From a virus (lineage: Duplodnaviria > Caudoviricetes), in the IMG/VR virus record IMGVR_UViG_3300043932_000107, positions 1-28,323 of that record: a DNA stretch of 28,323 nucleotides; one strand, 5' to 3'. The position numbers and the translations under genes were made by a program. This document shows positions 491-26,742 of this stretch, piece by piece (within the stretch, counting starts at the first letter, position 1; each line of letters begins with the position of its first letter). The notes below the pieces were generated by a model. The model did no database searches and was not told the DNA's origin. It saw only the letters and a list, made by a program, of their open reading frames with translations.

Positions 491-1258
491 ATGAGTGAGG
501 CGCGCATATGCCCAATCACCGGCGAACCACGCATGACCAACCTCCAGGCCACGCTCCACACAGTCATCCAGCTTGCTGCGACGATGCCCGATCCACACGC
601 CACGATCCTCGGGATCCGCGCCGCAGACCCTTCGCGTTTGGGGCACGGCGGTGCATCCGACGGGCTCCCCTTCCGTTTGGATACGACGATCGACTACTGG
701 GACACTGAGACGGGCGACGTACGAGGAATCCGCACCAAGACCGGGATCCATGACTGGGCAGCAACATGGGCCTACTCCTGGTGGTCCTGGGCCGACGACG
801 GCAGCCCCAAACCAGCCGGTGACAAACTTCAATGGCTCGCGTCCCGCCTCGCCTGGGCAGAGCGCTGCTATCCCGCCATGACCGAGTTTGAGGATGAACT
901 CGCCTATGTCCTGCGAGTCCTCGAACACGCCCACGGACTCGACCCAGTATCTACCGACCGGACATGTCCCTCATGCGGAGGACAACTGCAACACCACGTC
1001 ACAGCAGCGGGTGTTCAGCCAGAGTTCGACTGCAGAGAATGCCGAAACCAATACTCCCCCGACGGATTAACCGTGATGACTCTCGGCAGAGCTAGAGATG
1101 CTCACGAGCTTGTTACCCAACAAGAAGCCGCCAGACTACTCAATATCAGTAGGTTCACCATCAACTCATGGATACGCCGAAAGCAGCTAGTAGCGTACGG
1201 GGCGCGGCGTCAAGTCTATGTTGATGAAGTGCAGCGACTCGCCGACCACAACGCTTGA
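491..1258 (+). CDS. Zn-ribbon plus C-terminal HTH DNA-binding protein, probable late transcription regulator
   Basis: CPSC...CREC motif, then excisionase/MerR-like HTH (VTQQEAARLLNISRFTINSWIRRKQL); GGAGG RBS; position just before the late region. Confidence 0.75.
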   Translation: MSEARICPITGEPRMTNLQATLHTVIQLAATMPDPHATILGIRAADPSRLGHGGASDGLPFRLDTTIDYWDTETGDVRGIRTKTGIHDWAATWAYSWWSWADDGSPKPAGDKLQWLASRLAWAERCYPAMTEFEDELAYVLRVLEHAHGLDPVSTDRTCPSCGGQLQHHVTAAGVQPEFDCRECRNQYSPDGLTVMTLGRARDAHELVTQQEAARLLNISRFTINSWIRRKQLVAYGARRQVYVDEVQRLADHNA

Positions 1259-1283
1259 AACAGGACGCTCGGTCGTGCACACT
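1255..1283 (+). promoter_or_regulatory. Candidate late promoter
   Basis: TTGAAA-17 bp-CACACT right after the regulator gene and upstream of a terminator hairpin. Confidence 0.35.
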
Positions 1284-1307
1284 GATTCGTGGAAGAACTA
1301 TATACAA

Positions 1308-1345
1308 AAGAGCCCCCAGCCATCGCAGGCCAGGGGCTCTTCTCG
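1308..1345. terminator. Intrinsic terminator-like hairpin
   Basis: AAGAGCCCC...GGGGCTCTT 9-bp stem between convergent genes. Confidence 0.6.
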
Positions 1346-1361
1346 TTAGACAATCCGGCTA

Positions 1362-1520
1362 TCAGGAACCGCCAAGCTTCTGACAATCCTTGCATGGACG
1401 ATTACCTACACCCTTGCCCGAGACGCGATTGCGCGCAGGGATCTGCTTTCCGGTAGGGCAATCATTGTGCCAATGATAAACATCTGGATCAGACGGATTT
1501 GATGAATGATAGTAAGCCAT
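1362..1520 (-). CDS. Small His/Cys metal-binding protein (52 aa), not in the ORF track
   Basis: MAYYHSSNPSDPDVYHWHNDCPTGKQIPARNRVSGKGVGNRPCKDCQKLGGS; RBS GGAAGGGGGTGA upstream on the minus strand. Confidence 0.7.
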   Translation of the reverse strand: MAYYHSSNPSDPDVYHWHNDCPTGKQIPARNRVSGKGVGNRPCKDCQKLGGS

Positions 1521-2591: not shown

Positions 2592-3122
2592 ATGACTAGT
2601 GGTGGTGCGCGTGTGAAGTCTGGGCCTGCCCCAGATCCTCGTTCGGGTCGATCTGATCGGCGTGGGCTTACTTTCCGAATGCTTCCTGCGGAAGGGTTCA
2701 AGGGGCGGATTCCAAAGTTTCCTCTCCCTAAAATCGATTTTGGTTTTTTCACTAAAGATGGTGAGCGGGTTGAGGATCTTGAAGGGTCTGAGTCGTTTGC
2801 TCGTCGGGAGAAGGAATTGTGGCGGTGGGCGTGGCGTACTCCGCAGGCTGTGGTGTGGTTTGAGGAGCCGTGGCGTCAGTACACGGTGGCGATGTGGGTG
2901 CGTACGGCTGCGACGTGTGAGACTCAGCGTGGTGGTGCGGCTGATAAGACGGCGATGCTTCGTCTTGCTGATCAGATTGGTTTGACGCCGGCGGGGTTGG
3001 CTGCGAATCAGTGGCAGGTCGGCAAGGCGGCGGACAGTAAAACTCCTGATGGAAATCCGGGTAGGACCCGTTCGTCTCGGTCTCGTGTGAAACTCAAGGT
3101 CGTGGGCGATGGTGGCGCCTGA
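2592..3122 (+). CDS. terS: Terminase small subunit
   Basis: MTSGGARVKSGPAPDP start, WRTPQAVVW and QIGLTPAGL motifs; overlaps the large terminase start. Confidence 0.85.
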   Translation: MTSGGARVKSGPAPDPRSGRSDRRGLTFRMLPAEGFKGRIPKFPLPKIDFGFFTKDGERVEDLEGSESFARREKELWRWAWRTPQAVVWFEEPWRQYTVAMWVRTAATCETQRGGAADKTAMLRLADQIGLTPAGLAANQWQVGKAADSKTPDGNPGRTRSSRSRVKLKVVGDGGA

Positions 3123-7487: not shown

Positions 7488-8075
7488 ATGTCTAGGAAAC
7501 GGCTCCCCTTCTATATTCGGCTTCTCACAGATCCTGCTGAACCTGGTGGCGGTGATCCGACGCCAGGAAACGCCGCTAACGCTAGTGGCGAGCAGCTCGG
7601 CGAGAACGGTAAGAAAGCTTTGCAAAGCGAGCGCGAGGCTCGTAAGGCTGCCGAAAAGGCTTTCGCTGAGGCTTCTGCCAAATGGGAAGCAGAGAAAGCT
7701 GCGCTAACGAAGCAGGCGCAAGAGGCATCTGATGCTGCGGCGAAGGCGCAGATTGATGCCGCGCGGGCGTCAGTGTTCCGAGCGAAGAACATTCCACCGG
7801 AGCTTGAAAAATTCGTTGCCGGTTCGACGGAGGAAGAATTGGAAGCAAGCGCTGATGAGGTGCTTGCGGCATTTCGTCCGCCTGCTGCAGAGCCGTCGGC
7901 GCCGGAAGTGAAGCCTCTCGGGATGCGTCCAGATATGACACAAGGAGCATCGACTTCACCAGATGGCGGTGATGTTGATTCTTTGATTTCGGCTGCTGAA
8001 AACGAGAAGAACTATCGAAAGTCTTTGGAATTGAAAGCGGTCAAACTGGGCAAACTCGCTCAGATTCAAAACTAG
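7488..8075 (+). CDS. Capsid scaffolding protein
   Basis: GGAG RBS; LGENGKKALQSEREARKAAEK coiled coil; GSTEEELEASAD motif; precedes the major capsid gene. Confidence 0.85.
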   Translation: MSRKRLPFYIRLLTDPAEPGGGDPTPGNAANASGEQLGENGKKALQSEREARKAAEKAFAEASAKWEAEKAALTKQAQEASDAAAKAQIDAARASVFRAKNIPPELEKFVAGSTEEELEASADEVLAAFRPPAAEPSAPEVKPLGMRPDMTQGASTSPDGGDVDSLISAAENEKNYRKSLELKAVKLGKLAQIQN

Positions 8076-13562: not shown

Positions 13563-16451
13563 TTGTCTCAAGAAAGATCGATAAAAGTCACCTTCCGGAC
13601 CAACGTCGCAGATTTTCGACAGCAGCTTAAGTCTGCTTCAACGGCTCTCGAGGATCTTGCAGCTAAAGGGGACAAAACCGGTAAAGTAGCGGAGACCGGT
13701 TTAGGCAGACTCGCGCAGTCAGCGCAGTTGCAGCGTGAAGCTTGGAATACAGCCGGTGGGGCCCTCCTATCATTTGGGGCGGTCGGCGCTGCCGCATTTG
13801 GCGGAATTGTCGCGGTAACGAGTAAGTTTGATTCGCAGATGTCCGCGGTCCAAGCGGCTACTCTTGCGTCGGCGTCTGAGATGGATGTGCTCCGTGAGGC
13901 CGCGATTGAAGCGGGTGCCGATACTGCGTTCTCAGCCACGGAAGCGGCGCAGGGTATCGAAGAGCTCGCAAAAGCTGGCGTGTCCACCACTGATATTCTC
14001 AACGGCGGCCTAGCCGGAGCACTCGACCTTGCCGCTGCCGGTGGTGTGTCTGTGGAGGAAGCTGCTGAGTCCGCCGCCTCAGCGCTGACACAGTTCGGGC
14101 TATCCGGCGAGGACGTCCCCCATGTTGCCGACCTACTTGCCGCTGCGGCTGGCAAGGCGCAGGGTGGCGTCACTGATATGTCGCAGGCGCTTTCTCAGGC
14201 GGGCTTGGTTGCGTCCAATTCTGGTCTTTCTATTGAAGAGACTACGGGCGTCCTCGCTGCGTTCGCGTCCGCTGGGCTGATCGGCTCTGATGCTGGGACG
14301 TCGTTCAAGAGCATGCTCCAGCGTCTCCAGAATCCGTCGAAGGAATCGGCGCAACTCATGGAGGAGCTTGGGATCTCCATGTATGACGCCAACGGGAACA
14401 TGGTTGGCATGTCCGATTTGGCCGGACAGCTTAAGAGCAAGCTGGGCGGGCTTACCCAGGCTCAGCGTGACGCGGCGTTGGCGCAGATCTTCGGATCCGA
14501 CGCGGTGCGTGCAGCCACCGTACTTTATAACCAGGGGTCGGAAGGCATCTCTAACTGGACTAGTGAAGTAGATGAATCGGGGTATGCTGCTGAAACTGCG
14601 GCGGCCCGTCAGGATAACCTCGCTGGGTCGTGGGAGAAACTGACGGGGTCGGCTGAGACTCTCGCCATTTCTATCGGAGAGAAGGTCACTCCGGCTCTAA
14701 AGTGGCTGGTAGATGGCGCAACTGCCGTTATTGATTCGATCGATGAGATACCTGATCCTATTCTCGCTGTAGCTACTGGACTTGGTGGGATTGCAACGGC
14801 TGGAGCGCTTGCTGGTGGGGCATTCCTTACACTCGCGCCGCGTGTATGGGATACGTACACGGCTATAACTAGCCTCAAGGCTACGTTCCCCACCTTTGGC
14901 TCGCACCTGGATAGCGTCACCTCCAAGACAGGAAAGTTCCTGGGGAAGCTTACGAAAGTTACCGGCGCACTCGGCGTGTTCTATGGGACGATGCGTGGCG
15001 TACAAGCCCTTTCGACCGCTGTCGCTGGGATCGAGAGAACCGTCCAGGGAGTGGAGCAACTTCAAAATCGACTCGATGCTGCCGCGTCTTCCGGGGAATC
15101 TTTCTATAATGCCGTCGTCAAGAGTATCGGGGATATCAATACCGAACAGTTTACCGACTTGGCGGAGTCTCTGGAGCGTGTGGCGCAACCTGGCTGGGCC
15201 GACAAGCTCGCGTCGATAACAAAGCTTGACGCGACCGGCTTTAATGACGTTGTAGACCAGTTCGATGTTCTCAATGAACAGATATCGACACTCGCTGGTT
15301 CGGACGTGTCGAAAGCTACTGACCAATTTGCAGCGTTGCTGGAAGAGGCTGGTGGCACCAAAGAGGCGTTTGAAAATCTGAAAACGGTACTCCCTGACTA
15401 CGTTGAAGAAATGTACGCCCTCGCTAATGCGAATGGGGTAACGATTGACGATACTAACGAACTTGCGCTACTCACGGGCGGGTTGAGTGACCAATTTTCT
15501 GCGACGTCCGATTCTGCGAACGGCACATCTACCGCTATCGATTCTGTCACCGATGCGGCTGAGGATGCAGCGGATGCCATGGATGAATACATCCAAGGCC
15601 TTGAGGACGCCGCAGGTATCGGCATTTCACTGTCCGAGGCTCAGATCGGCTGGCAGCAGGCTATCGCGGATGCTACGGCGGCTCTCCAAGAAAACGGTCA
15701 GACGCTCGACATTACTACTGAGGCTGGGCGTAATAATCAGTCTGCGTTGAATGATATGGCTTCCTCGGCGTGGGACCTTGTCACGTCGCTGTATGAGGTT
15801 GATGGCGCGTCTGCTGATCTTGAGGGCACGATGCAGACGGCGCGGAATGCGTTCATTCAGACGGCCATACAGATGGGGATGACGCAAGCTGAGGCTGGAG
15901 AACTTGCCGACAAGTTCGGGTTGATTCCGGGTAATGTGCGCACCAACGTGATCGCGAACACGTGGCAGGCATCTTCCGCCATTGATCAGGTAGCAGGGCA
16001 GCTATCATCTCTCCCCACGAGGAAGACGATCACAGTAGACGTTCTACAGTACTATTCCACATACGGTGAATCTGTTTATTCGGCGTCCGGTGGCACAGGC
16101 GGGAATGCTCTTCATCGTGCTGGTGGTGGCGCGATTTATGGGCCTGGGACTGCTACCTCCGATTCGATCCTGGCGCGCCTGTCGACTGGTGAGCATGTCC
16201 TGACGGCGTCGGATGTGCAAAAGATCGGCGGACAGTCCGCGGTGTATCGGCTCCGGGCGGCTATCCAGGCCGGGATGGTGCGGTTTGCTGATGGTGGCAC
16301 TGTTGGCGGCTCGTCGCTCGTGTCTCCGAAAGTCATGGTTTCAACCACACCGGCGATCTATGTTCAGAACCCGTTTACAGGGAAGTATTTGCTGGCGCAG
16401 GTGGATCAGCGTGCCGAGAATGTGGCGGTTGACGTGGTGAATGCGAGGTGA
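13563..16451 (+). CDS. Tape measure protein (TP901-type core)
   Basis: GGAGGTG RBS before TTG 13563; Ala/Gly-rich; FSATEAAQGIEELAKAG, GSDAGTSFKSML and C-terminal GPGTATSDSILARLSTGEHV motifs. Confidence 0.95.
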   Translation: MSQERSIKVTFRTNVADFRQQLKSASTALEDLAAKGDKTGKVAETGLGRLAQSAQLQREAWNTAGGALLSFGAVGAAAFGGIVAVTSKFDSQMSAVQAATLASASEMDVLREAAIEAGADTAFSATEAAQGIEELAKAGVSTTDILNGGLAGALDLAAAGGVSVEEAAESAASALTQFGLSGEDVPHVADLLAAAAGKAQGGVTDMSQALSQAGLVASNSGLSIEETTGVLAAFASAGLIGSDAGTSFKSMLQRLQNPSKESAQLMEELGISMYDANGNMVGMSDLAGQLKSKLGGLTQAQRDAALAQIFGSDAVRAATVLYNQGSEGISNWTSEVDESGYAAETAAARQDNLAGSWEKLTGSAETLAISIGEKVTPALKWLVDGATAVIDSIDEIPDPILAVATGLGGIATAGALAGGAFLTLAPRVWDTYTAITSLKATFPTFGSHLDSVTSKTGKFLGKLTKVTGALGVFYGTMRGVQALSTAVAGIERTVQGVEQLQNRLDAAASSGESFYNAVVKSIGDINTEQFTDLAESLERVAQPGWADKLASITKLDATGFNDVVDQFDVLNEQISTLAGSDVSKATDQFAALLEEAGGTKEAFENLKTVLPDYVEEMYALANANGVTIDDTNELALLTGGLSDQFSATSDSANGTSTAIDSVTDAAEDAADAMDEYIQGLEDAAGIGISLSEAQIGWQQAIADATAALQENGQTLDITTEAGRNNQSALNDMASSAWDLVTSLYEVDGASADLEGTMQTARNAFIQTAIQMGMTQAEAGELADKFGLIPGNVRTNVIANTWQASSAIDQVAGQLSSLPTRKTITVDVLQYYSTYGESVYSASGGTGGNALHRAGGGAIYGPGTATSDSILARLSTGEHVLTASDVQKIGGQSAVYRLRAAIQAGMVRFADGGTVGGSSLVSPKVMVSTTPAIYVQNPFTGKYLLAQVDQRAENVAVDVVNAR

Positions 16452-24137: not shown

Positions 24138-24512
24138 ATGGAAAACCCAATCAGTGCTAAAGCACGCGGCGCACTCTATGTCGCCGGCATCATCATCGGT
24201 TCGCTCGCCACGGTCTTTGGGCCTCTCTCGCAGGCTATCGGCCTGTCAGATGAATGGTCGGCGGTAGTGACCTCGGTCGTGGGTGCGTTGATCCTGATAA
24301 CGAACACTCTCTCCAAAGCCAACCTGACGGCAGATAGCACGGATACCACTGCAGTTTCTACGGCCACTGCCACAGCAGAGGCGGATACTGCCACACCTGA
24401 GGCTATCGACGTGACAGCCGCTCTCTCTGAGGTTGACTCGCAGATTCAGGCTGAGGAAGCGCCCGTGGGAGACGTGGACGACCCGACCGGGGCACTCACA
24501 GACAGCGAGTGA
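24138..24512 (+). CDS. Holin
   Basis: Two TM segments (ISAKARGALYV...), acidic tail; follows the endolysin. Confidence 0.8.
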   Translation: MENPISAKARGALYVAGIIIGSLATVFGPLSQAIGLSDEWSAVVTSVVGALILITNTLSKANLTADSTDTTAVSTATATAEADTATPEAIDVTAALSEVDSQIQAEEAPVGDVDDPTGALTDSE

Positions 24513-24784
24513 CCATGGGCGGGATAGATACGGGCATTATCGTCGCGGCTATCGCGGCAGTGGGGGGAGTCGCGGTGGCCTGGATAAAATGGCGGACCGA
24601 CAAGGAAGCTAACGCTATCGCGGTGCTGCGCGTCCTCGTGGAAGAGCAGGGCGACGAGCTGGAGACGCTCAGGAGCCGTGTGGACGCGCTGGAGCGTGAA
24701 CGGCAGTCCGATCACGAGTATATCCAGATTTTGCGGGATCACATTTACAAGAGGCTTCCACCGCCGCCGCCCCCACATCCATAA
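24509..24784 (+). CDS. Lysis-module membrane protein (TM plus coiled coil)
   Basis: N-terminal TM, coiled coil, ends LPPPPPPHP; start at 24509 (GTG) or 24515 (ATG). Confidence 0.75.
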   Translation: MTMGGIDTGIIVAAIAAVGGVAVAWIKWRTDKEANAIAVLRVLVEEQGDELETLRSRVDALERERQSDHEYIQILRDHIYKRLPPPPPPHP

Positions 24785-24790
24785 AAACTT

Positions 24791-24827
24791 TCCCCGGTCG
24801 CCCTGATGGGTGGTCGGGGAGTTTTTT
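24791..24827 (+). terminator. Intrinsic terminator after the lysis module
   Basis: TCCCCGGTCGCCC-tgat-GGGTGGTCGGGGA then GTTTTTT. Confidence 0.8.
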
Positions 24828-24828
24828 G

Positions 24829-24857
24829 TAGATAGCGTCAGCGAACAATGCTATGCT
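24829..24857 (+). promoter_or_regulatory. Promoter for the CRISPR mini-array
   Basis: TAGATA-17 bp-TATGCT with extended -10 (TGn); predicted start about 24864, just before repeat 1. Confidence 0.6.
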
Positions 24858-24865
24858 GTTGATGA

Positions 24866-24973
24866 GCTGCCGCCCCGCAGTGGGTGGCCCTTCATTGAGG
24901 CATGGTGAGAGACGGGCTAAACCGCCGCTATATTGTGTTGCCCTCCAGTTTTTGGAGGGCCCTTCATTGAAAA
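24866..24973 (+). CRISPR. Cas-less CRISPR mini-array: two type I-G (I-U)-like repeats and one 35-nt spacer
   Basis: R1 GCTGCCGCCCCGCAGTGGGTGGCCCTTCATTGAGGC (24866-24901); spacer 24902-24936; R2 GTTGCCCTCCAGTTTTTGGAGGGCCCTTCATTGAAAA (24937-24973). Both fold into a 7-8 bp hairpin starting at nt 4 and share the GGCCCTTCATTGA tail. Confidence 0.8.
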
Positions 24974-24975
24974 TG

Positions 24976-25013
24976 AAAGCCCCTGGTTGTCATTAAGGCG
25001 ACCAGGGGCTTTT
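24976..25013 (+). terminator. Terminator closing the mini-array transcript
   Basis: AAAGCCCCTGGTTGTC-attaa-GGCGACCAGGGGCTTT(T). Confidence 0.8.
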
Positions 25014-25060
25014 CGCGTCACTTAGGACATTGCAAGTTTTGGGGGTGCGAATTCTCGATC

Positions 25061-25090
25061 CTCCCACCGCCGCCGCCCCCGCACCCGTAA
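25061..25090 (+). repeat. Second copy of the 3' end of the 24509-24784 gene (remnant)
   Basis: 26/30 identical to 24755-24784; both encode LPPPPPPHP-stop. Confidence 0.85.
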
Positions 25091-25096
25091 GCCAAG

Positions 25097-25136
25097 AACA
25101 AGCCCCTCACCCTAACCGGGTGGGGGGCTTGTTTTG
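25097..25136. terminator. Bidirectional terminator
   Basis: AACAAGCCCCTCACCC-taacc-GGGTGGGGGGCTTGTT. Confidence 0.8.
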
Positions 25137-25141
25137 TTGTC

Positions 25142-25672
25142 TTAGTCCTCGTCGTCGCTGTCGAAGAGGATTACGTAGGATCCGGGTTCGAGGTCGGCCA
25201 CTGTGTTCACGCGGTCAAGCTCCAAGCTGTGCCCGTCGCGGTGGAAGAAACTCGCCTTGAGGACTGCCGTGCCGCGGTTCGCGCTGACTTCGAGGTGCAC
25301 TGGCGGCTCATCCTCAAAAGCGAAGAGCCTGTGCCCGATGTTTTCGAAAGCGGGATCCATCCATGTCACATCGGCGGGGATCCACATGGCGACGACGGTG
25401 CGTGTATCGCCGAAGCGATCCGTGATGCTCAGGGTTGCGGTTCTGGGTGTGGTGTGCGTGAAATGGGTGGCGATCTCACGGCGGCGGTCGAAAGCGGTTC
25501 TGTCAATCTCGCTCCCAACACGGTGGGGAATCAATTCTTTGCCGGATTCCCATTTGCGGAGAGTGTCAGGGCGGACGTTGAGGCGAGCGGCAAGCGCTTC
25601 ACCGGTCATCCCGAGGACCTTGCGGGCATTCTTGAGCTGAGCTGGACTCATGCGGTCAGTGGTGGTGTTCAT
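25142..25672 (-). CDS. XRE-family HTH protein with additional C-terminal domain (Aca-like context)
   Basis: MSPAQLKNARKVLGMTGEALAARLNVRPDTLRKWESGK; GAAAGGA RBS. Confidence 0.85.
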   Translation of the reverse strand: MNTTTDRMSPAQLKNARKVLGMTGEALAARLNVRPDTLRKWESGKELIPHRVGSEIDRTAFDRRREIATHFTHTTPRTATLSITDRFGDTRTVVAMWIPADVTWMDPAFENIGHRLFAFEDEPPVHLEVSANRGTAVLKASFFHRDGHSLELDRVNTVADLEPGSYVILFDSDDED

Positions 25673-25713
25673 GGTGTTTTCCTTTCAAGAGTGATTCTGG
25701 TTTGGTGAGGTGG

Positions 25714-26103
25714 TCAGCAGAAGCTTGCTGATCCGTCGTCGCAGGAGTTGCAGAGCCAGCCGGAGATTCCGGACATGTCGCGGGCTGCGTGTGCTCCGGA
25801 GCGTCCGCATTCTTCGCAACGGTGGCTGGAGGTGCCCAACTGTCCGAGGCGTCCGGTGGCGTAACGGCGAGTGTAGGTTGGGCTGGTGTAGGTTGAGCGG
25901 GAGTGGGTTGCGGTGGCCACTGTGGCGATTGAGAGGCCGTCTGTCCCGGTCCAGATCACCTTGCCGACTGTGACGGTCTTTGTTTCGCCGGACTTCTTGG
26001 TGACTGTGACCTGTTCGCCTTCGGTCAGGTCGAATCCTTTGATTCCCCAAGACCCGTTGCGAAGCTTGATCCATGTGATCTGGGTGGTGGCTGTGGTGCT
26101 CAT
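25714..26103 (-). CDS. Hypothetical protein (129 aa) with beta-rich N-terminus and C-terminal CxxC...CxxC
   Basis: GGAG RBS before ATG 26103; CEEC and CNSC motifs. Confidence 0.75.
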   Translation of the reverse strand: MSTTATTQITWIKLRNGSWGIKGFDLTEGEQVTVTKKSGETKTVTVGKVIWTGTDGLSIATVATATHSRSTYTSPTYTRRYATGRLGQLGTSSHRCEECGRSGAHAARDMSGISGWLCNSCDDGSASFC

Positions 26104-26163
26104 TGGAATCTCCATCTGATTCTGAGGTCTTTGGGGCTGTTCCCCTGACCTCTTGATGACACA

Positions 26164-26193
26164 ATTCTAACCCACAACTTTGTGGGGTGTCAA
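26164..26193 (-). promoter_or_regulatory. Strong sigma70/SigA-type promoter with internal palindromic operator
   Basis: Minus strand TTGACA-18 bp-TAGAAT; CCCACAA-CT-TTGTGGG (26171-26186) lies between the hexamers. Confidence 0.8.
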
Positions 26194-26351
26194 ATCTTTT
26201 GGGAAAGATCTTTAGACCAATTTCCCGCCCGCCAATCATCCACACTCCACGCGGCCTCAAACCGCGCGAGCATGGGGAGAGTTTCCACAGCGATGTGATG
26301 TTTTCGTGGGTTGAAGTGCAAGAGGAAAACCATCAATAAATATGCATCACA

Positions 26352-26627
26352 TCACACGCGTGGATTACCGCCTGCACGGATAGCTCCGTCATACGCCACC
26401 ACGCGCTCCAGCGCGTACTCCAGCCAGCGCAGGTCATTCGCTGGCGCCTCGACCGGCTCTCCAGCCACATCCACAGTCTCAGTCCCTACCAGCTCGCCAT
26501 CCCGAAAAACCGGATAGAGGCCGACAACGTACGCCTCAAGCGCGCCATCCTCCGCATCGAATGAAACGCCGTAGAGATCCTTATCAGAGCACGCTGCCTC
26601 AAACGCTACCTCGCCCGCAAAATCCAT
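26352..26627 (-). CDS. Small acidic hypothetical protein (91 aa; alternative start 26648)
   Basis: GGTGAG before ATG 26627; about 19 D/E versus 6 K/R; TATAGT -10 candidate at 26693-26698. Confidence 0.6.
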   Translation of the reverse strand: MDFAGEVAFEAACSDKDLYGVSFDAEDGALEAYVVGLYPVFRDGELVGTETVDVAGEPVEAPANDLRWLEYALERVVAYDGAIRAGGNPRV

Positions 26628-26742
26628 CGAGTACTCACCAGCGGACAAAACCCGACACGCACCAAGGAGCTACTCAAAAGAGCCGCTTGACAACTATAGA
26701 AGCATCACACTTTCTCGCACAGTCCATAGCAGACACCGAAGG

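Follow-up and report, generated by a model that had tools for sequence, protein, structure and literature searches.

A two-repeat type I-G-like CRISPR cassette on a temperate phage, a candidate mimic of CRISPR guide RNA

The phage locus and the layout of the cassette

The window analyzed here, a whole stretch of 28,323 nucleotides, is an IMG/VR virus record, and 28,249 of its bases are identical to a complete phage genome (G001) of 39,086 bases with direct terminal repeats. The source is a temperate siphovirus of actinobacterial type from bioreactor sludge, with a terminase about 53% identical to those of Arthrobacter phages. Its genes encode portal, protease, capsid, tape-measure, and tail proteins, an NlpC/P60-type lysin, a holin-like protein, and a tyrosine integrase, and the part of the complete genome beyond the window adds a primase, RusA, and a repressor with a metalloprotease. 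There is no tRNA gene in the window, and the DNA of the region had no match in INPHARED.

A cassette of about 190 bp lies between the last lysis gene and a convergent three-gene block that ends at the integrase. The lysis gene (24509 to 24784, plus strand), behind which the cassette is placed, encodes a protein of 91 amino acids with a weak spanin-like match (phrog_739, E value of 9e-4). The convergent block (25142 to 26648, minus strand) fills the space between integrase and cassette and encodes proteins of 98 and 191 amino acids, for which no family match was found, and a helix-turn-helix (HTH) protein of 176 amino acids. The last matched HTH_3 with 26 bits and Aca2_YdiL with 19.6 bits, under the cutoff of 23.8 for that family, and searches of PDB sequences and PADLOC gave generic HTH matches only. 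The layout of the block resembles an acr-aca operon convergent with the cassette, with an Aca2 match that is below threshold. When the endolysin and the HTH protein were used as queries for close relatives, we retrieved only this phage itself and a single distant record that lacks the cassette, and a protein atlas search for the host yielded viral capsid clusters only.

Using 74 open reading frame queries, some of them against several libraries, we found no cas family in the window or in the whole 39-kb phage, so that the absence of cas genes first reported for the window extends to the complete genome. A host array fragment at a prophage edge was ruled out, because the cassette sits inside a complete phage genome with terminal repeats.

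The core of the cassette (24866 to 24973, plus strand) consists of a 36-nt repeat, R1 (24866 to 24901; GCTGCCGCCCCGCAGTGGGTGGCCCTTCATTGAGGC), a 35-nt spacer (24902 to 24936), and a 37-nt repeat, R2 (24937 to 24973; GTTGCCCTCCAGTTTTTGGAGGGCCCTTCATTGAAAA). R1 forms a 7-bp hairpin and has the tail CCCTTCATTGAGGC, and R2 forms an 8-bp hairpin with a z score of -3.6. Terminator-like hairpins bound the core on both sides, all of them read on the plus strand, and the coordinates together with the fold confirm the layout of the unit given in the initial annotation. The upstream hairpin (24790 to 24827) has a 14-pair stem followed by TTTTTT and appears in the terminator scan at 24790 to 24821, in agreement with the insulating terminator that had been proposed there. 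The downstream hairpin (24976 to 25016), which ends the module, has perfect arms of 12 nt and 17 bp in the fold, followed by TTTT. Of the strong terminator claimed for the cassette itself, the stem stands, but the scan omits it, the T run being only 4.

A predicted promoter occupies 24829 to 24857 on the plus strand, with TAGATA at 24829 to 24834, a spacing of 17, TATGCT at 24852 to 24857, and TGC directly before the -10 element, and the start site predicted from it would fall within about 4 nt of R1. These elements are present as had been described, but they match the consensus at 8 of 12 positions, whereas our consensus scan requires 9 and hence does not list them. The same scan gave another weak promoter-like site within the spacer (24905 to 24934), at a rate that shuffled sequences nearly reach. 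The predicted promoter is the same in a related contig from sludge (X9, below), and expression of the cassette from its own signals is plausible as predicted from the sequence.

Some features of this stretch would also suit a hairpin small RNA, an attenuator, or a small peptide gene unconnected with CRISPR. A 157-nt stretch of the cassette folds well (z score of -5.7), the R2 tail is able to pair with the 5' arm of the terminator, and an open frame of 22 codons on the plus strand runs across the spacer and R2, from an ATG at the first base of the spacer (24902) to a TGA in the R2 tail (24968 to 24970). We consider such an origin very unlikely. An Rfam scan of 24300 to 25500 gave a best E value of 0.03, far below the gathering score, and the agreement with type I-G repeats in length, register, tail, and spacing is specific. 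The open frame is probably due to chance, as GAGG lies just 1 nt before its ATG and a frame of this kind arises by chance about 1 time in 3.

Two unlike repeats of a type I-G family

To collect the family, we searched one genome per species for the 12-nt tail CCTTCATTGAGG written twice at repeat distance. The 79 stretches found were nearly all arrays of 36-nt repeats, mostly from Actinomycetota, whose repeats have the form GTYGC, stem, loop, stem, CCCTTCATTGAGGC. They occur in Micromonospora, Actinoplanes, Dactylosporangium, Salinispora, and Pseudonocardia, as well as in Bifidobacterium tsurumiense, Corynebacterium frankenforstense, Haematomicrobium, Ancrocorticia, and Cellulomonas, and outside these genera in some Chloroflexota and Trueperaceae. 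For the family with the tail CCCTTCATTGAGG, type I-G cas genes adjoin the arrays, in the same direction, in four of the seven loci examined. The array flank in Haematomicrobium sanguinis (L020) encodes Csb2 (220 bits, cutoff of 45) and Cas3g (573 bits, cutoff of 400), that in C. frankenforstense (L069) Csb1, Csb2, and Cas3g, that in B. tsurumiense (L005) Cas3g, and that of a fourth locus (L006) Csb1. Cas4g/Cas1g was the top match in L020, L069, and L005, each time below its own cutoff. No I-G cas gene was found within the array flank at hand in the other three loci (L012, L013, and L034).

A covariance model was built from 37 distinct array repeats. Its stem covaries, with 81.6% of cells paired compared to 64.6% in shuffles and six of eight pairs changed on both sides. 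When 69 kb was searched on both strands, R1 scored 37.4 bits (E value of 1.6e-7) and R2 19.0 bits (E value of about 0.01, with the last 3 positions absent), both on the plus strand, and the next-best score in the window was 12.4 bits on either strand. Genuine array repeats score 34 to 54 bits with the same model, which makes R1 a full family member; R2 belongs to the I-G family in a degenerate form and resembles the decayed last repeat of an array. By construction, this model has an invariant tail, as the sequences were found through it; independent support for the match comes from its length, from GTYGC at the start, and from the stem register. R1 shows the features of the family over the full model, namely, 36 nt, GTYGC at the 5' end, a stem of 7 to 8 bp in a fixed register, and a 13-nt tail. 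With arrays of this tail family beside I-G cas genes and the R1 score inside the genuine range, the type I-G-like character first assigned to the repeats is borne out, and it is well supported by the sequence that the cassette is built for recognition by I-G proteins. It is not a canonical CRISPR array, having only two repeats, which agree in 24 of 37 columns, and neither cas genes nor a leader.

The 24 identical positions among the 37 aligned columns include the common stretch GGCCCTTCATTGA. The two hairpins stand in the same register, with 7 and 8 bp, respectively: they share three basal and two upper pairs, two more differ in both partners without loss of pairing, and an eighth pair is present in R2 only. 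The initial annotation had noted stems that differ while pairing and tail are kept, and the alignment upholds it. In R2, GTTGC, the stem base, and CCCTTCATTGA are kept, and an AAAA end replaces GGC. The near-invariant positions of the family, G4, C5, the two basal pairs, and CCCTTCATTGA, are kept in both repeats. As for the ends, R1 does retain the handle ascribed to it, since its ATTGAGGC end corresponds to the 8-nt 5' handle left by Csb2 (PMC9638904), and the loss ascribed to R2 is real and concerns only the last 3 to 4 bases. The terminal repeats of genuine arrays often lose their last tail bases in the same way; the last repeat of the H. sanguinis array ends in CATTGATCC and R2 in CATTGAAAA.

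This likeness raises the question of whether the cassette is a decaying relic, an array-end fragment gained by recombination and now drifting without function. The degenerate end of R2 agrees with such an origin. The terminal repeats of genuine arrays, however, retain the stem of their own array, while the two stems of the cassette differ and yet both pair, and every near-invariant family position has been retained in both repeats. We therefore rejected a simple capture of an array end, because genuine terminal repeats keep the stem of the array.

In the only I-G system mapped in print, Csb2 cuts the 36-nt repeat 4 nt past the 7-bp hairpin, leaves an 8-nt 5' handle, and remains on the 3' hairpin (PMC9638904). 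Applying this cut to the cassette would give a 72-nt product with a ATTGAGGC handle, and the position is a candidate cut site. The spacer length agrees with that of genuine I-G arrays, in which 35 nt is the commonest length (362 spacers), followed by 36 nt (319) and 37 nt (269). For Csb2 of Bifidobacterium animalis, a cut 5 nt from the 5' end of the substrate with a dispensable stem has been described (10.1101/2022.08.19.504415). That cut, at C5/A6, would fit the reverse complement of the tail of the present family, and the substrate orientation in that preprint may be opposite to the one that follows from the direction of cas genes to array and from the decay of terminal repeats in our data.

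Other elements of this family came up during the searches. Two proviral IMG/VR records (L092 at 1057 to 1380, plus strand, and L104 at 2790 to 3110, minus strand) carry a different I-G-like two-unit element, in which unit 1 has the tail only, with no hairpin, and unit 2 has a CCCTCC/GGGAGG hairpin like that of R2. A 16-nt inverted repeat brackets this I-G part. About 130 nt on there is a two-unit element of I-E-like type, whose CCCCGC...GCGGGG repeats are spaced 32 nt apart, and a terminator comes after it. Perfect lone I-G repeats were seen in two bacterial I-G loci (L045 at 7632 to 7667 and L033 at 15615 to 15650), separated from the main arrays by about 2 kb or more, and are possible host solitary repeat units. 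A 4.4-kb record filed as viral (IMGVR_UViG_3300045454_000064) holds a plain I-G array of at least seven repeats and may be a misfiled host fragment.

The module among related phages and the searches for host and target

In contigs from sludge runs, many relatives share 24500 to 24827 at high depth and then diverge just past the upstream terminator, and loose ends at 24799 to 24827 were found in runs X5 to X9. More abundant relatives in similar samples have a CCCCG...CGGGG hairpin after the lysis terminator, in place of the cassette. As the abundant relatives diverge at this point into a different hairpin, the site after the lysis terminator is a hot spot with alternative cargo. Run X12 gave no cover.

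Two contigs carry the module itself. X9 (698 nt, depth of 6) carries 24797 to 25016 with three changes in 220 nt: the T run has gained a T, and the 5' arm of R1 has lost one base at 24868 and carries G24872T. Its spacer is unchanged. X9 then jumps from 25016 to 25139, skipping 25017 to 25138, and enters the HTH gene; this further stretch of 478 nt shows 55 differences, the neighboring gene being about 88% alike. X10 (253 nt, depth of 2) is unchanged over 24855 to 25019 and then runs into unlike sequence, so that the module ends at 25016 to 25019 in both. The cassette is thus a discrete module at a variable site among related phages. The 122 nt skipped in X9 (25017 to 25138, plus strand) repeat the final 30 nt of the upstream gene in an 87% alike second copy and hold a second terminator (25095 to 25135), and from the sequence this stretch looks like a recombination scar.

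The module is rare. An I-G-like repeat was found in none of 50 related IMG/VR records (large terminase subunit, TerL, 47 to 96% identical; 11 of the records at least 90% complete). Among 119 matches to a 14-nt tail in 34 of the 64 IMG/VR parts, there was no convincing hairpin in the register of the family, and three weak 5-bp hairpins look like one coding sequence. Both this rarity and the position at a recombination hot spot beside a duplicated gene-end scar would be expected of a relic. Drift without function, however, agrees poorly with 3 changes in 220 nt of module compared to 55 in 478 nt of flank, and the module is also present beside other DNA, in X10. Together with the stems that differ and still pair, this makes a relic unlikely in our judgment.

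We looked for the array from which the repeats might have come. The native repeat closest to R1, the best of 78 genome loci, agrees with it at 28 of 36 positions. A metagenome scan for the 3' arm of either R1 or R2 in array form gave one unrelated array only, and so no native array with the stem of R1 or R2 was found in the 78 genome loci and this one scan. When the window was compared by BLAST with 82 array-bearing loci, the matches were to the shared repeat tail only, and hence no spacer in these loci matches the phage.

For the host, TerL was searched in 401, 251, 20, 1, 1, and 31 genomes, with a best identity of 76 to 77% in two genomes of one family. We did not adopt this family as the host and name none, because even the best TerL is only 76 to 77% identical and lies in prophage loci with 67% G+C, compared to 57% for the phage. 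In the same family, Csb2 was above its cutoff in 3 of the 401 genomes (G638, G535, and G551); the arrays of G638 and G535 have repeat tails other than that of the cassette, and no array was found beside Csb2 in G551.

The initial annotation had envisaged a competing element or a gene as the target of the spacer, and the searches for such a target came out negative. There is none within the window or the complete genome of 39 kb. Against INPHARED and PLSDB, the spacer gave chance matches of 17 to 21 nt only; its exact string occurs in IMG/VR in the cassette itself only; and no match was found in five genomes that have either the nearest prophages or an I-G system, or in the 50 related viral records with up to 3 mismatches. 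For close relatives from sludge, these target searches had low power. We also counted PAM-proximal seed matches in 3.2 Mb (both strands, about 60 I-G loci). None had 10 or more bases, and one had 9, compared to about 12 expected by chance; this single match sits on the trailer side of an array.

These results bear on a reading of the cassette as a mini-array that makes a functional guide, in which its crRNA would direct Cascade and Cas3 of the host I-G system at a rival phage or plasmid and give superinfection exclusion to the benefit of lysogen and prophage. Much of the layout would serve this purpose: R1 follows the consensus and carries the ATTGAGGC end, the spacer is of the modal length (35 nt), R2 retains the hairpin and the context of the cut site, and promoter-like and terminator-like signals of its own accompany the unit between lysis genes and integrase. 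The spacer has also stayed unchanged in X9 next to the more diverged gene. The spacers of viral mini-arrays mostly match related viruses (PMC11656645), but for this spacer no protospacer turned up in the collections above. The published mini-arrays, moreover, have repeats identical to those of the host (PMC11656645), whereas here R1 and R2 differ and no native array with either stem was found. We regard interference with a competitor as a real possibility, somewhat less probable than the reading given next.

A predicted guide mimic and its relation to known systems

To our knowledge, type I-G is the least studied of the type I systems, and we know of no RNA-based inhibitor, regulator, or viral guide, nor of any I-G Racr, that has been tested for it. 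The system is used as an endogenous editing tool in bifidobacteria. The cassette is a compact and well-bounded candidate for an RNA-based interplay of phage and type I-G immunity, and we predict that its RNA likely blunts or redirects the I-G immunity of the host.

Our preferred reading, held tentatively and at somewhat less than even chances, is that the cassette is a counter-defense guide mimic of the Racr or Cracr kind, predicted to occupy the I-G Cascade of the host. The cassette would be transcribed alone, starting from the TGC-TATGCT element a few bases from R1. Csb2 would bind both hairpins, its cuts falling immediately 5' of ATTGAGGC in R1 and of ATTGAAAA in R2. The product, an RNA of about 72 nt, would begin with a handle of 8 nt, continue through the spacer (35 nt), and close with a 3' hairpin formed by the first 29 nt of R2. 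This guide-like RNA would compete with the crRNAs of the host for Csb2 and Cas7, and through partial pairing it may in addition direct Cascade to a promoter of the host, for example, that of the cas operon. We know of no CreR-like regulator or cas promoter target in type I-G.

We place the mimic first because only family-wide features are kept in the repeats, no native array matching them was found, and the searches gave no full target for the spacer; two unlike repeats that keep what is common to the family are more in line with a generic mimic than with copying from a single host array. We also do so because the cassette adjoins the acr-aca-like block, with its subthreshold Aca2 match, and because the proviral records L092 and L104 string I-G-like and I-E-like units together, as in multiplexed Cracr arrays (10.1101/2024.10.29.618823). 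Counted against the mimic are the intact handle of R1, the modal spacer, and the cut-site context of R2, which are the needs of an interfering crRNA, and the site between lysis genes and integrase, which equally suits an exclusion function expressed in the lysogen. Also counted against it are the seed search, with nothing of 10 or more bases in the 3.2 Mb and fewer matches of 9 than expected by chance, the Aca2 match under its cutoff beside two small proteins that match nothing, and the low power of the target searches for the closest relatives, which come from sludge metagenomes.

A bolder version of the guide mimic, which we put forward as a speculation with little probability, takes the unlike repeats as design. 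By keeping only GTYGC, the basal pairs, and CCCTTCATTGA, the two repeats would be proof against recombination and could hijack many I-G systems, and the spacer would silence a conserved host promoter. If true, such a promoter-silencing spacer would bring to light a circuit, as yet unknown, by which type I-G CRISPR-Cas regulates itself.

Mini-arrays, Racrs, and Cracrs have already been published (PMC11656645, PMC10651486, and 10.1101/2024.10.29.618823, respectively), and the cassette extends this class to type I-G and opens no new one; its own feature is a pair of unlike repeats that equally conform to the family. Like the Racrs of Camara-Wilpert et al. 2023 (PMC10651486), it is a phage-borne repeat mimic without cas genes, on a mobile element, outside a cas locus, and behind a promoter-like site, the promoter being a predicted one. 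Racrs act by binding Cas6 and Cas7, which blocks the cognate CRISPR-Cas system. The cassette differs from them in having two repeat units at exact spacer distance instead of one (PMC10651486). Among the rows listed as Racr candidates in supplementary file 3 of that paper, there are at least about 25 I-G solitary repeats, and none of the I-G repeats in the rows listed has the present tail, nor do any of the sequences or records described here occur there. Under the mini-array rule of that paper, which asks for at least 90% identity between units, the cassette, with 24 of 37 columns identical, would not count as a mini-array.

The Cracrs of Liu et al. (10.1101/2024.10.29.618823) are similar in that a degenerate repeat, a spacer-like stretch, and a degenerate repeat lie on a phage, with repeats that are unlike. 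Their units may adjoin anti-CRISPR genes and multiplexed forms exist, to which L092 and L104 may be compared (10.1101/2024.10.29.618823). A Cracr is defined in the preprint by at least 9 PAM-proximal matches to the host CreR/CreA target, located at a cas or toxin promoter, and for the cassette no such target was found in the loci searched. The 219 Cracr candidates given there belong to types V-A, I-F, I-E, I-C, and I-B, not I-G, and "I-G" is absent from the main texts of this preprint and Shmakov 2023.

With the virus-borne mini-arrays, which serve in conflicts between viruses (PMC11656645), the cassette shares one spacer, two repeats, the lack of cas genes, and a temperate virus as carrier. 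As described in that paper, the repeats of those mini-arrays are identical to the host's and their spacers are mostly directed against related viruses, and neither was found for the cassette. The genuine I-G arrays of Actinomycetota (L020, L069, and L005) resemble it in the 36-nt repeat with GTYGC start, the hairpin of 7 to 8 bp in the same register, the tail CCCTTCATTGAGGC, the 35-nt spacer, and the degenerate last repeat. Compared to these arrays, the cassette has two repeats only, with unlike stems, is without cas genes or leader, and is carried by a phage.
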